From assembly GCA_027450205.1 (NCBI GenBank), contig DAIDJL010000002.1, forward strand, positions 205,007 to 269,006: 64,000 nucleotides of DNA, written 5' to 3'. Positions 7,579-61,527 of the stretch are shown piece by piece (within the stretch, counting starts at the first letter, position 1; each line of letters begins with the position of its first letter). The stretch comes from Candidatus Parcubacteria bacterium (lineage in GTDB: Bacteria; Patescibacteriota; Minisyncoccia; UBA6257; 2-01-FULL-56-20). The notes beneath the pieces were generated by a model. That model was not told the DNA's origin, did no database searches, and saw only the letters and a list, made by a program, of their open reading frames with translations. Made by a program: the position numbers and the translations under genes.

Positions 7579-7717
7579 GGTTTGGGTCGTTAGAAGGTCG
7601 TTAATCCGCTGTGCGTCTCTTGCCCCCGTCGAGCAGGAAGTGGCAAGGTTCGAACACGGAGAAACACCTGATGAATCAGGCGGCCTAGAAGGATTCCATG
7701 AAATAAGTCCTAACTTG

Positions 7718-7788
7718 AGCGGGTAACGGGAGTCGAACCCGTGACTTCACCTTGGAAGGGTGACGTAATACCGTTATACAATACCCGC
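7718..7788 (-). tRNA. tRNA-Gly (anticodon TCC)
   Basis: Manual fold: acceptor GCGGGTA/TACCCGC, anticodon loop CTTCCAA, T-arm ACGGG-TTCGACT-CCCGT, discriminator T. CCA not encoded. Confidence 0.8.
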
Positions 7789-7860: not shown

Positions 7861-8484
7861 TTGCTACAAATAGGTAATCCGAATATGTCCAAATTCTCGC
7901 GTCGCACCAAGATCATTGCGGCTTTCATCATACTCGTGGCGCTGGGATATGGGCTTGCCATCTTTTGGCAATCGCAGAACAAGGTGCCGGCGGACTTCAC
8001 CGCGGCACGGCTTCAGGGGGCGATCATCGCGCAGACGATCGTCAATACATCCAATCAGTCCACTGCGGCGCTCGAACAGATAAATAAATACGATCAGCAG
8101 GGCAATTATACCGCCGCGCTCGCTTCAACGACGGACCTTATCAATCAGAGCGCGGGGTTGCGCGACGAAGCGGTGCAGTTGTCCGCGCAGGTGAGCCAGA
8201 TGACGAAGGATCTCTCGAGTATCAACTCCGGCGCCGCACAGCAGGCGGCATTGGAATCCATTTCGAGCCGTCTTGCGCTCATCAACGAGCTTATCACGTA
8301 CAGCAACGATCTCGACCGCCTCCTCACCGTTCTCCAGGCGCGGTTTAGCGGCACGCTCGAACCGAATGGCGTCGTGCAGGGATTGGTGAACCAGATCAAT
8401 ACCGATGTGAATGCGATCAACAATTTCAATGCGCAGGCCGGGCAGGCGATGGATAAATTTGATTCGATAGAGAAGGGAAATTAA
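7861..8484 (+). CDS. membrane-anchored coiled-coil protein
   Basis: N-terminal TM (IIAAFIILVALGYGLAIFW), Q/A/L-rich helical remainder. Probable start at ATG 7885. Terminator-like hairpin plus T-run follows. Confidence 0.5.
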   Translation: MLQIGNPNMSKFSRRTKIIAAFIILVALGYGLAIFWQSQNKVPADFTAARLQGAIIAQTIVNTSNQSTAALEQINKYDQQGNYTAALASTTDLINQSAGLRDEAVQLSAQVSQMTKDLSSINSGAAQQAALESISSRLALINELITYSNDLDRLLTVLQARFSGTLEPNGVVQGLVNQINTDVNAINNFNAQAGQAMDKFDSIEKGN

Positions 8485-8729
8485 TAAAGAAGCTTCTTGT
8501 ATTTCTTCTTTTTTTAGGCGGCGGCGCGCAGCGTTCCGGCTTGCTGGCTGGCCGCCTCGGCGCTCGCCACTCACCACCCTGTGGCTCCGTAGCGCCCTTC
8601 AAAACATAAGAACATCCTTCTTTACTTCCCTCCGTCAATCTTTTATTCTGAACCAGTGGATGCGTTTGTAGCTCAGCGATAGCGTTGCTTCTCAAGGCAA
8701 CGGGATAAAGAATAGAAACGCAGCATTCA

Positions 8730-8801
8730 GGGGCGCGTAGCTCAATGGCAGAGCAGACGTCTTATACACGTCCGGTTCCAGGTTCGAGTCCTGGCGCGCC
8801 C
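8730..8801 (+). tRNA. tRNA with anticodon TAT (Ile-type, AUA decoder)
   Basis: Acceptor GGGCGCG/CGCGCCC, D-arm GCTC-AATGGCA-GAGC, anticodon stem GACGT/ACGTC with loop CTTATAC, T-arm CCAGG-TTCGAGT-CCTGG, discriminator A. Confidence 0.7.
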
Positions 8802-8820
8802 ACAATTTCTCTTTTTAGGT

Positions 8821-10650
8821 TTACGCCGCGATCGGCTTGATCTTGAACGGTTTTAGTACGGCGTTGAAGTCATCCTGTTCCAATACCTCTTTTTCGATCA
8901 ATGTGTCGGCGATCTTTTTAAGCGCAGCTTTATGCGTCTTTAATATTTTCTCCGCTATGTCATGTGCGTGCATAAGGAGTTTGCGTACCTGCTCGTCAAT
9001 TTCGGACGCGACACGCTCGGAATAGTTCTTTTCGTTGGATATTTCCTGGCCGAGGAACATCATCTGTTCTGTTTTGCCGAAAACGATAGGGCCGAGATCG
9101 CTCATGCCGTATTTGACCACCATGCGCCGCGCAAGCTCGGACGCTTCCTTAAGATCGTTCGACGCGCCGGTGGAAATATCGCCGAATGTAAGCTTTTCCG
9201 AGACATATCCGCCCATCATCATTGAAAGATCGGCAAGAAATTGATTGCGCGTCTTAAGATGCTGGTCTTCGCTGGGGAGCTTCATGGTATAGCCTCCGGC
9301 GAAGCCCCGGGAGATGATGGAAACTTTTTGCACGGGGTCGGCATCTTTGACCGATGCTGCCACAAGCGCATGGCCGCCTTCGTGATATGCGGTGATCTCT
9401 TTTTCTTTTTGCGAGATGACACGGCTCTTGCGCTCCGGTCCCATGATCACTTTTTCCGCCGCCTCGAGCAGCTCCGGCTGGCCGATCGATTTCTTGTTAT
9501 GCCGCGCGCTCGCGATGGCGGCCTCATTCATTAAGTTTGCAAGGTCGGCGCCGGAGAATCCCGGCGTGCGTGCCGCGACGCGGCGGAGGTCTACGTCCTT
9601 CTCGAGCGTCTTGCCTTCGGCGTGGATCTTTAATATTGCTTCACGGTCGTTCATGTCGGGGAGATCAAGGATGACGCGGCGGTCGAAACGGCCCGGGCGG
9701 AGCAGCGCCGGGTCGAGGATATCAGGGCGGTTCGTGGCGGCGAGGACGATGACGCGCGTGTCGCGGTCAAAGCCGTCCATCTCCACAAGGATCTGGTTCA
9801 GCGTCTGCTCGCGCTCATCGCTGCCGCCGCCCATGCCGGCGCCGCGCTGGCGGCCGACGGCGTCGATCTCGTCAATGAACAGGATCGCCGGCGCGGCGCG
9901 CTTGGCTTGCATGAAAGCGTCGCGCGTGCGTGATGCGCCCACGCCGACGAACATCTCTACGAATTCGGATGCGGAGATATAGAAGAAGGGAACATTGCTT
10001 TCGCCTGCGACTGCGCGCGCGACGAGCGTTTTGCCTGTGCCCGGAGGGCCCATCAAAAGAATACCGCGCGGGATGCGTGCGCCGAGATCAAGGAATTTTT
10101 GAGGATTTTTTAAGAAGTCCACAACCTCGATCAATTCCTCTTTTGCTTCCCTTAACCCCGCGACATCCTTAAAAAAGACCCGGTCTTTGACGTTGGAAAG
10201 CTTAAGGTTGGAACGGCCGAAGTTGAACGCCTGATTGACGCCGGTCTTCGCCTGGCGGAACATGAACCAGAACAGGATGCCGATGATAAGGAGTGTCAGT
10301 ATCGGATCGACCAAAATACCCGCCCAAAACTGCCATCCGGATTGGTTTACCACCTGGAGATCCACGGTTTGCAGGGCTTGCTGGTTTACGCCAAGATTCT
10401 TCAGCGTGTCGGAGATCCCGGACTCTGCCTCTTTTTGCGCGATCGCCGCACTGCCATCCGTCATGGTGATATCAAGTTCGTTGCCGTTCACCTTGATCTG
10501 CTTGACCTGGCCGGCGTTGATGTCCGCCACGAGCTGGTCAAGGTTAAGTGTCTTCGGCTGGGTTTGCGGCCCGACGAAATAGGAAAAGACGAGCGAGATG
10601 ACGATCAGTGTAATGACCGCCCAAATGATATTTTTGGTAAGGTTGGACAT
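8821..10650 (-). CDS. ftsH: ATP-dependent zinc metalloprotease FtsH
   Basis: N-terminal TM, AAA Walker A GPPGTGKT, second region of homology, HEGGHAL zinc motif; 609 aa. Confidence 0.95.
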
Positions 10651-45903: not shown

Positions 45904-46195
45904 GCAGGCGCTACACTTAACCCATAACTGAATATGATGGGGCGCAAGCCTCGGAGCCTAAACCTTCACCGGCATGGCTCATAAGACTCAAACCAGAATA
46001 CTGAACCCCGCGTTCAGCAACTCTGGTTTGAGCCGTACTGGGAAACTGGTACGGGACCGAAAGGTCTAGCTGACACGGGGTTCAGTGTTATTTCTTTCCG
46101 TGTCGGCTATCAAAGGCCGGCATTTTTGTTTATCAATTCGTGATCAAAATCAATCACAGAAAGAAAATTAAGGAGGATAGAAAATAACCAATACT

Positions 46196-54653: not shown

Positions 54654-56252
54654 ATGGAAAAATCAGCAGAGAAAATTAAATACTTCATGTACGCTCGCAA
54701 ATCGTCCGAGAGCGAGGATCGGCAGATGGCGTCTATCGAATCCCAGATTGACGAGCTGAAAAAGCTTGCCAAAGAAAACAATCTCGAGATCGTCGAGGTG
54801 TTTTCCGAATCAAAGTCGGCGAAAGCGCCGGGTCGCACGGAGTTCAGGAAAATGATCGAGCGCATTCAGGAAGGTGAAGTACAAGGTGTCATCTGCTGGA
54901 AGCTGAACCGGCTGGCGAGGAATCCTGTTGATGGCGGGGAAATCAGCTGGCTGCTTCAGCAGAGTGTCATCAAGCACATCCAGACGTATGGGCGGAGCTA
55001 TTACCCGACCGATAACGTCTTAATGATGAGCGTGGAGTTCGGCATGGCGAACCAATTTGTGAAGGACTTGAGCGTGGATACGAAGCGCGGCATGCGGGCA
55101 AAGGCGGAGCGAGGATGGTGTCCCGGTCCGGCTCCCGTCGGATATCTCCATAATCCCATTAAGAAACAGGGCGAAAAGGAGGTTCTTTCCGATGAAAAGC
55201 GTTTTGGCATCGTCTCAAAATGCTGGGCGATGATGCTCATGGGAGCGCATACGGTGCCACAGGTGTGGGAGGTTGCGGTGAACCGGTGGGGCCTTACCGG
55301 TCGCATGGGGAAGAAGCTCAGTTTGAGCAACATGTATGCTTTGTTTGCTAATCCCTTCTATTGCGGAGAGTTTGAGTATCCTCTTGGAAGCGGTATCTGG
55401 CATCAGGGGAAGCACGAGCCGATGATTACCCGGAAAGAATTCGAGCGCGTGCAGACCATTATGGGCTGGGGCAACAAGTCACGGCGGAAGACGCATGACA
55501 TTTCCATGCGCGGCCCGATCCTGTGTGGGGAGTGCGGCGCAATGATTACAGCCGAGGAGAAAGTCAAAATCCAAAAGAATGGAAATCGCCATGAATACAC
55601 TTACTACCACTGTACTGGGCGAAAAAACAAGAATTGCTTGCAGAAGCGCATCCGCATTGAAGAGAAGGAGTTAGAGCGACAGGTTAAGGAAATCTTTTCA
55701 AAGGTTGAAATCCCGCAGGAGTTTTATGAGTGGGCCATGGATGTATTACGCGAGTCGAATGAGGCGGAGTCGACAACTCGTGCGAAGATCACCGACAGTC
55801 AGCGGGCAGAATACGATCGTAGCGTGAAGATGATCGACGCCATCATCGATATGCGGGCGCGTGGCGAAATCACCGAGGAAGAGTTTACGCGACGCAAGAC
55901 ATCGCTGCTTACGGAAAAACATCACTTACAAGGGCTTATTAACGATGCCGACAAAGGTGTAGATGATTGGCTCGCAACGGCCGACAAGTATTTCAACTTC
56001 GCGGCGAATGCCAAGCGGAAGTTCGAAAACGGCACATCCGACGAGATCCGGGAGCTACTAACCCTCTTAGGTTCGGACCTCCTCTTAACGCAAGGAAAAC
56101 TCAGTGTTTCCTTGGCCGAACCACTCATCGTGATCGAAAAATTAGCGCCGGGAGCACGACTCATAAATGAGAGGTTTGGACCTGCAAAAAATGCAGAAGA
56201 TATAAAGGAATTAAGAACGTTATACGCTCAAAATTCAACAAGGGGTGCCTAA
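54654..56252 (+). CDS. large serine recombinase (resolvase catalytic domain plus recombinase and zinc-ribbon domains)
   Basis: N-terminal YARKSSESEDRQMASIESQ (catalytic Ser region), recombinase domain, Cys4 CGECG...C..C, C-terminal coiled coil; stop codon lies inside tRNA-His. Confidence 0.85.
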   Translation: MEKSAEKIKYFMYARKSSESEDRQMASIESQIDELKKLAKENNLEIVEVFSESKSAKAPGRTEFRKMIERIQEGEVQGVICWKLNRLARNPVDGGEISWLLQQSVIKHIQTYGRSYYPTDNVLMMSVEFGMANQFVKDLSVDTKRGMRAKAERGWCPGPAPVGYLHNPIKKQGEKEVLSDEKRFGIVSKCWAMMLMGAHTVPQVWEVAVNRWGLTGRMGKKLSLSNMYALFANPFYCGEFEYPLGSGIWHQGKHEPMITRKEFERVQTIMGWGNKSRRKTHDISMRGPILCGECGAMITAEEKVKIQKNGNRHEYTYYHCTGRKNKNCLQKRIRIEEKELERQVKEIFSKVEIPQEFYEWAMDVLRESNEAESTTRAKITDSQRAEYDRSVKMIDAIIDMRARGEITEEEFTRRKTSLLTEKHHLQGLINDADKGVDDWLATADKYFNFAANAKRKFENGTSDEIRELLTLLGSDLLLTQGKLSVSLAEPLIVIEKLAPGARLINERFGPAKNAEDIKELRTLYAQNSTRGA

Positions 56253-56315
56253 CGGGAATCGGACCCGTATTGCCGCTGCCACAGAGCGGAGCTTTACCAT
56301 TAAGCTATAGGCACC
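56244..56315 (-). tRNA. tRNA-His (anticodon GTG) with genomically encoded G-1
   Basis: G-1 plus acceptor GTGCCTA/TAGGCAC, D-arm GCTT-AATGGTA-AAGC, anticodon stem CCGCT/AGCGG with loop CTGTGGC, T-arm ACGGG-TCCGATT-CCCGT, discriminator C. Confidence 0.8.
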
Positions 56316-61334: not shown

Positions 61335-61463
61335 CGCTTTTGCAAGAGCAGGGCACATCTTTCGAAAGGACGGCGTTCCGGTCTGCTGACCGGCCGCCTT
61401 GGCGCTCGGCACCTTCATGCCTCCGCGGCACCTTTCAAAAGATGTGCCCTGCTCTTGCAAAAG
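61335..61463. repeat. 34-bp near-perfect inverted repeat (one mismatch) around a 61-nt spacer holding a smaller hairpin
   Basis: Arm 61335-61368 gcttttgcaagagcagggcacatctttcgaaagg vs arm 61430-61463 cctttcaaaagatgtgccctgctcttgcaaaagc. Inner ccggtc-tgc-tgaccgg. Confidence 0.85.
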
Positions 61464-61527
61464 CGAAGACCTTCTACATATTTTGGGCTGGAATTTTGCT
61501 TCGGTTTCTGCTAAAATATATCCATAT

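Follow-up and report, generated by a model that had tools for sequence, protein, structure and literature searches.

A tRNA-Ile(UAU) gene beside ftsH in a Parcubacteria genome and the probable scar of a tRNA-carrying cassette in an older copy of the gene

Results and discussion

The tRNA-Ile(UAU) gene and its linkage to ftsH

The region studied here belongs to Candidatus Parcubacteria bacterium (GenBank assembly GCA_027450205.1, contig DAIDJL010000002.1), and the whole stretch of 64,000 nucleotides that was analysed is referred to as the window. It contains a gene for a tRNA-Ile with anticodon UAU that is convergent with ftsH and, upstream of the tRNA gene, a truncated tRNA-like sequence (Table 1). 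The interpretation that we favour, and consider probable, is that the truncated sequence is the scar of a tRNA-carrying cassette that would have been inserted into the anticodon loop of an older copy of the gene and would have replaced it, the tRNA gene now present being a working one that is found across the class.

The gene was called by ARAGORN as a tRNA-Ile with anticodon tat, and its positions 8731-8802 scored 70 bits with the Rfam tRNA model (gathering score 29). It has an acceptor stem GGGCGCG/CGCGCCC, a D arm GCTC/GAGC, an anticodon arm GACGT-CTTATAC-ACGTC, a T arm CCAGG-TTCGAGT-CCTGG and A as discriminator base and, because the anticodon loop is CTTATAC, the position of the anticodon is not in doubt. 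A preliminary description, made from the sequence alone, had recognised a canonical tRNA with a UAU anticodon at 8730-8801; the tRNA stands and ARAGORN places its anticodon nowhere else, while the ends had been set one or two bases off. The isoleucine identity set of Escherichia coli was reportedly given by Nureki in 1994 as A73, C4-G69, U12-A23, C29-G41 and A37. All of these are read in the sequence of the window tRNA, in which position 38 is C, not A. Among 67 orthologues A73 is invariant, whereas the pairs are conserved to different extents (C-G at 4-69 in 56, U-A at 12-23 in 61, C-G at 29-41 in 39). In the alignment of the 67 copies, 18 of the 21 cloverleaf pairs show compensatory changes and CTTATA of the anticodon loop is invariant; this covariation is the pattern to be expected of a functional tRNA, and the gene is, judging from the comparison, the organism's working tRNA-Ile(UAU), predicted to read AUA codons directly.

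A scan for FtsH proteins with one genome per species provided 80 related loci of ca. 20 kb each (62-93% FtsH identity), labelled L002, L003 and so on, for which ftsH served as the anchor and all of which come from metagenome-assembled genomes of Paceibacterota, Parcubacteria or Minisyncoccia. This places the window in the Paceibacteria. ARAGORN found a UAU tRNA beside ftsH in 66 of the 80, and several of the 14 loci with no such call are contigs that end near ftsH. As far as these genomes indicate, tRNA-Ile(UAU) next to ftsH is a class-wide feature of the Paceibacteria, a class of the candidate phyla radiation. The rarity of UAU tRNAs implied beforehand did not hold, since they are near-universal in this class and are also common in viral contigs and metagenomes. 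Twelve viral contigs (IMG/VR, L090-L101) carry tRNAs with the anticodon arm ..CGTCTTATACACG.. (UAU), one giant-virus bin having two copies, so that such tRNAs are not rare in viruses.

Decoding of AUA codons

In 81 ftsH genes there are 547 ATA codons, which make up 16% of the isoleucine codons and align with I in 55% of cases, with V in 16%, with L in 15% and with M in 4%, and in ten genes of the window 42 of 393 isoleucine codons (about 11%) are ATA. Since the ATA codons align chiefly with isoleucine, AUA means isoleucine in these organisms. This regular use of AUA, for which a check of codon usage had been suggested, and the isoleucine-type features of the tRNA sustain the earlier assignment of the gene to isoleucine.

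No PP-loop motif (SGGxDS) was found in six-frame open reading frames (ORFs) of the window; in the 80 loci, which lie within 10 kb of ftsH, it appeared only in one MnmA-like and one unrelated ORF, and no tilS was found. A search for an IleRS gene by its KMSKS motif gave none in the window or the loci. Among the genes tabulated for Minisyncoccus archaeiphilus, a member of the class that is in culture, IleRS carries DUF5915, which makes it a type-2, eukaryote-like enzyme; no tilS, K04075 or PF01171 appears among the genes listed for this organism, to about gene 590, which is not conclusive. A different strategy of AUA decoding in the organism of the window, implied beforehand, may apply but does not follow from these searches.

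Nine species in three clades that lack tilS and have a tRNA-Ile(TAT) were described by Taniguchi et al. 2013, who reported eukaryote-type IleRS in the Bifidobacterium and Neorickettsia cases and mentioned 371 TAT tDNAs in metagenomes (PMC3575796). The tRNA of the window resembles tRNA-Ile2(UAU) of the Mycoplasma mobile type from these tilS-less bacteria in its cloverleaf, its anticodon, its isoleucine-type features and the meaning of AUA (PMC3575796), and the type-2 IleRS of M. archaeiphilus is like that of the tilS-less Bifidobacterium and Neorickettsia. The bacteria of the M. mobile type lack tilS, whereas the comparison made here covers the tRNA and the codons; moreover, they are a few scattered species, whereas here a whole class of the candidate phyla radiation is involved, with a fixed linkage to ftsH. 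A literature search found no paper joining lysidine or tilS with Patescibacteria.

Nested tRNA-Ile(UAU) genes in related genomes

Upstream of the orthologues in L002, L026, L029 and L030 there are clear tRNA 5' halves; L019 has part of one. Each stops at CTTA (position 35), with a related spacer of 30-40 nt (AAAAYNGGNAGCGAG..AAATAGAAAYG) between it and the intact tRNA. A comparison of all tRNAs with all loci by blastn-short paired these 5' halves with 3' halves located downstream of the same intact tRNA. Complete units were read in L002, L019, L026, L029, L085 and L088, with L086 being nearly a duplicate of L029 and L087 of L026 (L085, L086, L087 and L088 came from a metagenome pattern search). 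Their order is an outer 5' half (1-35), a leader s1 (28-40 nt), a complete inner tRNA-Ile(UAU), a trailer s2 (47-63 nt) and an outer 3' half (from 36), i.e. a resident tRNA-Ile(UAU) is split at 35/36 of its anticodon loop by an insert of 149-166 nt. The insert ends in TA, hence TA (34-35) is present at both junctions, which read CTTA|AAAC and ..CATA|TAC; TA precedes T36 at all 8 Ile-type 3' junctions (the six distinct units, the near-duplicates L086 and L087, and L063). In a tree of FtsH the nested loci fall in three separate clades. An assembly artefact was rejected, as independent projects show the same architecture with different sequences, contigs of 726 and 914 kb among them.

A simple tandem origin of the window's truncated copy, by slippage that duplicated the 5' half of the tRNA locally and with no cassette involved, is suggested by the window taken alone, where a 5' fragment stands ca. 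36 nt ahead of an intact copy. We consider it very unlikely: the fragment is nearer to another allele, type B (25/34), than to its own neighbour (20/34), corresponding 3' halves lie on the downstream side in the relatives, so that the arrangement is nested and not tandem, the same break point and a homologous spacer recur across three separate clades, and there are filled as well as empty sites, as detailed below. Allele identity and nesting were the grounds on which a simple tandem duplication was rejected.

The insert folds as a conserved three-way junction. Helix P_a joins its 5' end to s2 (AAAACTGG/CCAGTTTT, with CCGG and TGGG/CCCA variants) and covaries (CTGG/CCAG, CCGG/CCGG, TGGG/CCCA); helix P_b, of 13-18 bp, pairs leader and trailer under the inner tRNA; and hairpin P_c, right before the 3' junction, also covaries (GGGC/GCCC, CCGC/GCGG, GGCCC/GGGCC). 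The internal loop has the conserved motifs CAGCGAGG and CGAGYGAA. A search of Rfam with the nested insert (L085 unit, E<=10) gave nothing but tRNA.

Group I introns in tRNA anticodon loops of Patescibacteria, position 35/36 included, have been reported by Nakagawa et al. 2026 (PMC13011429). In L012 and L019 tRNA-Phe(GAA), a gene missed by ARAGORN, is split at 32/33 by a group I intron of ca. 200-220 nt (Rfam, 52.4 bits in L012), in agreement with those published introns (PMC13011429); the intron of L012 served as a positive control for the intron search. The Ile insert occurs in the same lineage and at the same loop site as the published introns, and the interrupted gene is likewise missed by gene finders (PMC13011429), but the insert has no group I core (RF00028), splice-site signature or Rfam intron match; moreover, it holds a complete tRNA, and the interrupted copy decays. 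A group I intron remnant was rejected on the Rfam result and the splice-site bases.

Another possibility, to which we assign a very small probability, is that the insert is a new kind of intron acting at the RNA level, so that the outer tRNA would still be made in the intact nests and the window would hold a dead example. The anticodon loop is perfect again once the insert and one TA are taken out, the junction, the covarying helices and the loop motifs are conserved, leader and trailer can pair with each other like the extra sequences of split tRNAs, and tRNA genes of Patescibacteria often have introns at 35/36 (PMC13011429). On the other hand, Rfam matched no intron or ribozyme, the 5' splice site lacks a U and the insert does not end in G, cutting by RNase P and RNase Z would sever the halves, and the outer halves decay freely (window, L002, L019, L030, with position 68 differing in L029 and L086). 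No bacterial enzymes that could carry out such splicing are known to us. The split and permuted tRNAs of Nanoarchaeum equitans and Cyanidioschyzon merolae are expressed as halves that are joined by the archaeal/eukaryotic splicing endonuclease and a ligase. Genes of this kind have been reviewed (PMC4390854, PMC4033280). The units described here likewise have halves broken in the anticodon loop and mutually complementary extensions (s1:s2, 13-18 bp), yet these halves flank a complete gene and look like pseudogenes, and no bulge-helix-bulge motif was recognised in the folds of the nested units.

The truncated tRNA in the window

The element upstream of the window's gene consists of an acceptor-like 5' strand GCGTTTG (8662-8668), a D-arm-like GCTC..AGC (8671-8683) and a stem GTTGC (8684-8688)/GCAAC (8697-8701) with an 8-nt loop (TTCTCAAG), and has no T arm, just as it had been described beforehand. 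It gave no ARAGORN call and no Rfam family even at E<=10. Its homology to the nested units is seen directly in the alignments: against the 5' half plus leader of L002 the scar aligned at z=8.5, a score that none of 2000 shuffles equalled, and a hidden Markov model (HMM) of seven such units from other genomes rendered a match at 8663-8721 with E=0.025, a value that covers the whole 64 kb on both strands; the match is at the expected place and is the sole near-full-length one in the window. The portion past the D arm, taken alone, gave z=3.1-3.9 against s1 of L002, L030 and L085 (GGCAGCGAG..AAAATAGAAAYG), with which the putative diverged leader of the window (GGCAACGGGATAAAGAATAGAAACGCAGCATTCAG) aligns. 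The 5' half matches the intact type B tRNA of the close relatives L007, L032 and L008 at 25/34 and its own type A neighbour at 20/34; in a test for attachment-site (att) scars, this partial copy appeared as a direct repeat of part of the intact gene. Downstream of the tRNA, a putative trailer stub (CAATTTCTCTTTTTA) resembles the start of s2 of L002 (CATTTCTATTTTTGACG). The distal s2 and the old 3' half are missing from the window, where there is no room for more trailer because the stop codon of ftsH is at 8821. In the minimum-free-energy fold 8806-8816 of the trailer pair with 8708-8718 of the leader; the centroid structure lacks this helix, and shuffled sequences fold equally well (z=-1.0).

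That the upstream element is instead a functional structured leader or regulatory RNA, kept for its fold, is extremely improbable in our opinion. It can form a long hairpin of -21.5 kcal/mol and contains an inverted repeat (8661-8670/8713-8722), but its folding is only at z=-2.2, with 5 of 200 shuffles folding as well, its closing helix is not kept in other nested loci, it is absent from the closest relatives, L004 and L005, and it has no Rfam match.

A block upstream of the scar (8621-8649) is conserved in L004 and L007, in which it ends 10-13 nt ahead of the intact tRNA, so that the scar occupies the position of the old gene. This block is a candidate promoter; it scores 8/12, under the scan threshold of 9/12, and a scan for sigma-70 promoters and terminators near the tRNA listed nothing useful. 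A decayed tRNA, perhaps the remnant of a past integration, had been proposed for the upstream sequence. The nested units of the relatives, the homology of the scar to the L002 unit and its match to type B support a decayed tRNA left by a past insertion event, but not an ordinary integrase scar.

Filled and empty sites and turnover of alleles

When the outer halves are joined, ARAGORN calls a tRNA-Ile(tat) in 5 of 6 cases. The outer tRNA of L085 is identical (73/73) to the uninterrupted gene of L014, and that of L029 is identical at 72 of 74 positions to that of the sister species L033. Between outer and inner alleles (e.g. in L085) the differences within the acceptor and T stems are compensatory, which implies that the outer copies were working until recently. 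The un-nested tRNA-Ile genes have unrelated flanks with no s1 or s2 motifs, and a search of 1.6 Mb with an HMM of the s2 core found matches confined to nested tRNA-Ile loci. Different stages of decay of the outer halves were observed: in L002 the 3' half is mutated, in L019 the 5' half is mostly gone, and L030 and the window have no 3' half; L029 and L086 differ in their substitutions at position 68.

Sister species can have very different tRNA-Ile(UAU) alleles at the same locus (L005 GGGCGTA..GACGT, L006 GGGCCGG..TCTTG). The tRNA of L003 looks chimeric, its acceptor and T arm being like those of relatives and its D loop and anticodon arm like those of a distant clade. These allele differences, with the mosaic of L003, suggest lateral replacement of, and recombination inside, the tRNA gene.

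Nests in other tRNA genes

Nests of tRNA-Val(UAC) with another family of flanks (s1 TTCACCCCG.., s2 ..ACGGGGCAAGC) were found in L041, L059, L062 and L080, and a nest of tRNA-Gly(UCC) in L044. In L080 two successive 5' halves stand ahead of the intact gene, i.e. it is a three-layer nest.

Origin of the scar

The insertion of a cassette would account for the window as follows. A resident type B tRNA-Ile(UAU) would have been interrupted at the TA of its anticodon (34-35) by a cassette of ca. 150-165 bp made up of leader s1, a complete type A tRNA-Ile(UAU) and structured trailer s2, so that the same insertion would break the resident gene in two, a 5' half and a 3' half, and provide a replacement for it. 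The redundant outer halves would later decay, or be lost by recombination between the direct repeats of 34-39 nt. The window would have lost the distal trailer and the outer 3' half by deletion, with ca. 15 nt of the start of the trailer kept, while the old 5' half and the leader would survive, mutated, probably in the pre-tRNA leader between the old promoter and the new tRNA, from which RNase P would probably remove them. A recombinase, a transposase, or homologous recombination with the tRNA halves as arms are candidates for the route of insertion, and TA at both junctions fits either a 2-bp target duplication or a 2-bp crossover. The recurrence of the units, the filled and empty pairs, the discrete flanks and the multiple nesting point to the repeated insertion of a discrete unit, and not to a local duplication or an island scar.

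Genes for tRNAs are usual integration targets, and the integrative elements found at them carry a copy of the displaced part of the tRNA and leave attL/attR tRNA fragments. The cassette would have in common with them the insertion inside a tRNA gene whose function is kept by an incoming tRNA sequence, and the partial tRNA scars with the break in the anticodon loop; in contrast, it is of ca. 150-165 bp, encodes no protein, and carries a whole tRNA gene that is nested inside the old one, and what it leaves as a scar is the 5' half, on the upstream side, where those elements leave a 3' half downstream. A classical scar of an integrase-mediated island or prophage, later lost from the tRNA gene, is a highly improbable origin, even if the distance between ftsH and the tRNA ranges from 18 nt to 7.8 kb among relatives and a large serine recombinase is found next to tRNA-His elsewhere in the window. 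Scars of integrases are said (Williams, 2002) to be 3' tRNA fragments downstream of an intact gene with the island in between, whereas here a 5' half lies upstream with a spacer of ca. 36 nt and the intact gene is inside the old one; moreover, no integrase is adjacent in the window or in any nested locus.

Correia elements and miniature inverted-repeat transposable elements (MITEs) of the IS630/mariner type are small elements with inverted repeats and TA target duplication. The cassette is likewise small and non-coding, and its inverted repeats and the TA at both junctions may be comparable. Its P_a repeats (TAAAACTGG/CCAGTTTTA) depart from that scheme in that the right copy is subterminal and followed by an extra hairpin of 15-19 nt. 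Unlike MITEs, the cassette carries a gene and, within 1.6 Mb, is confined to the cognate tRNA gene instead of being dispersed.

A serious alternative, and in our judgement a rather unlikely one, is that the nested unit originated on few occasions, perhaps a single one, lacks any insertion machinery and spreads between related cells that take up DNA and recombine it homologously, with the conserved tRNA halves, and also flanks such as ftsH, being the homology arms, as in an enzyme-free homing. It would be consistent with the recipient-like outer acceptor ends (those of L085 and L029, which match L014 and L033), with s1 and s2 being homologous everywhere and the s2 motif being seen in nested form only, with the lack of a recombinase nearby, and with the mosaic look of tracts inside the tRNA, e.g. 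in L003. However, arms of 34-39 nt are short for efficient recombination, the three-layer nest of L080 needs repeated entry into the newest copy, and the separate Val/Gly family, which follows the same logic, argues for a recurring process.

Several points weigh against the insertion of a tRNA-carrying cassette as outlined above, or against parts of it. The scans of viral contigs and metagenomes and the s2 HMM over 1.6 Mb gave no free cassette and no donor copy of it, and neither a recombinase nor a transposase was found: the viral contigs gave four chance matches to the trailer hairpin, none of the 12 with UAU tRNAs has the cassette flanks, and the exact 20-mer TTTTATGGGCGAAGCCCATA had 0 matches in metagenomes. 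The HMM of the leader (s1) alone was not significant on the window (E=48), the leader by itself being weakly similar. The independent Ile units are only six to eight, hence the covariation counts are small. The TA of the two junctions could belong to a conserved end of the cassette and not be a target duplication, and the Val- and Gly-type junctions show no clean duplication. The inner and outer halves are identical in L019 and L029, so that gene conversion could keep old outer copies intact-looking and lead to the recency of the insertions being overstated. Lastly, the search for tilS covered the 64-kb window and the 80 loci, and the UAU tRNA could be redundant with a lysidine system.

A broader proposal is offered only tentatively: that selfish tRNA-in-tRNA cassettes of ca. 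150-165 bp (Ile-UAU, Val-UAC, Gly-UCC) may repeatedly kill and replace their cognate tRNAs in this class, which may also decode AUA independently of TilS. In the literature searched, no description was found of a gene nested in the anticodon loop of the same tRNA, or of such cassettes, and searches on nested or split tRNAs in bacteria and on truncated or partial tRNAs in the candidate phyla radiation gave nothing relevant.

Genomic context and other elements

The stop codon of ftsH is 18 nt past the end of tRNA-Ile(UAU), and in the window a P-type ATPase gene, not tilS, is upstream of ftsH. In distant relatives the order is ftsH, tRNA-Ile(UAU), tRNA-Val(UAC), on one strand throughout; in the clade of the window tRNA-Ile is inverted and the conserved 207-aa ORF and tRNA-Gly(UCC) come next. 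The 3' end of this ORF can be aligned across close relatives, and tRNA-Ile and tRNA-Gly are paired in about 40 loci. The gap between ftsH and tRNA-Ile(UAU), of 18 nt in the window, is 7.8 kb in L008 (11828-19623) and 0.4-2 kb in other loci; the 3' side of tRNA-Ile is, on this comparison, a variable insertion hot spot.

A GC-rich structured repeat of ca. 75-110 nt (core GACGGCGTTCCGG..CCGGCCGCCTTGGCGCTCGGCAC..GTGCCTCCGCGACAC), with two hairpins inside a long closing stem, is often found beside tRNA genes, and in the window one copy lies directly upstream of the scar. The sequence of the closing stem varies while its pairing is kept, 11 of 25 predicted pairs being compensatory among six copies; it belongs to no Rfam family, having just sub-threshold matches to miRNA hairpins. 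The 3' end of the large serine recombinase gene overlaps tRNA-His(GUG) by about 10 nt and there may be an integrated element at this tRNA, of which blastn-short found no partial copy. A LOOT RNA lies between genes for a major facilitator superfamily (MFS) transporter and a transglutaminase-like protein. In L089, an unrelated GC-rich metagenome contig, a class-I-shaped tRNA of 74 nt with anticodon UAA was called 'Leu' by ARAGORN; it is short for a tRNA-Leu, and unusual.

Table 1. Positions of the features of the window and of elements in the related loci
Feature	Locus	Position	Strand	Evidence or remarks
tRNA-Gly(UCC)	window	7717-7788	-	
Conserved 207-aa ORF between tRNA-Gly(UCC) and the tRNA-Ile locus	window	7861-8484	+	ORF list
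GC-rich structured repeat	window	8510-8612, 61340-61465		
GC-rich structured repeat	L002	13177-13290		
GC-rich structured repeat	L006	12745-12850		
GC-rich structured repeat	L004	12535-12645	-	
GC-rich structured repeat	L032	12830-12945	-	
Promoter-like TTTACT-17 nt-TATTCT, upstream of the scar	window	8621-8649	+	Conserved with L004, L007
Decayed 5' half (positions 1-35) of a putative earlier resident tRNA-Ile(UAU), type B allele	window	8662-8694	+	Allele match, alignment to L002
Putative diverged leader s1 of the inserted cassette	window	8695-8730	+	Aligns with s1 of L002, L030, L085
tRNA-Ile(UAU), type A allele; putative inner gene of a former nested unit	window	8731-8803	+	ARAGORN, Rfam, 67 orthologues
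Putative trailer s2 stub	window	8804-8818	+	Resembles s2 start of L002
ftsH, convergent with tRNA-Ile(UAU)	window	8821-10650	-	Pfam Peptidase_M41, AAA, FtsH_ext
LOOT RNA	window	45955-46067	+	Rfam, 70.7 bits (gathering 46.4)
Large serine recombinase	window	54654-56252	+	Resolvase, Recombinase, Zn_ribbon_recom, SHOCT domains
tRNA-His(GUG)	window	56242-56314	-	
tRNA-Val nest	L041	8180-8370	-	
tRNA-Val nest	L059	6420-6580		
tRNA-Val nest	L080	12320-12560		Three layers
tRNA-Val nest	L062	11180-11370	-	
tRNA-Gly nest	L044	2920-3110		
Split tRNA-Phe(GAA)	L012	2600-2875	+	Group I intron
Split tRNA-Phe(GAA)	L019	4014-4308	-	
tRNA, anticodon UAA	L089	7728-7801		ARAGORN 'Leu'

Conclusions

The decoding of AUA by tRNA-Ile(UAU), formerly described in nine species of three clades (PMC3575796), is conserved here in a very large uncultured class. 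If tilS is truly absent, a major bacterial branch does without lysidine, which bears on the evolution of the discrimination between AUA and AUG, on genome annotation and on antibiotic targets (TilS, IleRS). The nests, in which a complete tRNA gene stands within the anticodon loop of its own kind, are an arrangement of which the literature searched gave no description; they occur in independent lineages and in three tRNA species. If the cassettes are mobile, they would be the smallest gene-carrying elements that hit an essential gene while making up for the damage, they would provide a mechanism for lateral tRNA gene replacement, and they would give rise to half-tRNA pseudogenes and, in genomes of the candidate phyla radiation, to tRNA genes that are missed or miscalled. 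Should they moreover be selfish, rapid turnover of tRNA alleles between species would follow, with Russian-doll nests and half-tRNA scars left behind.

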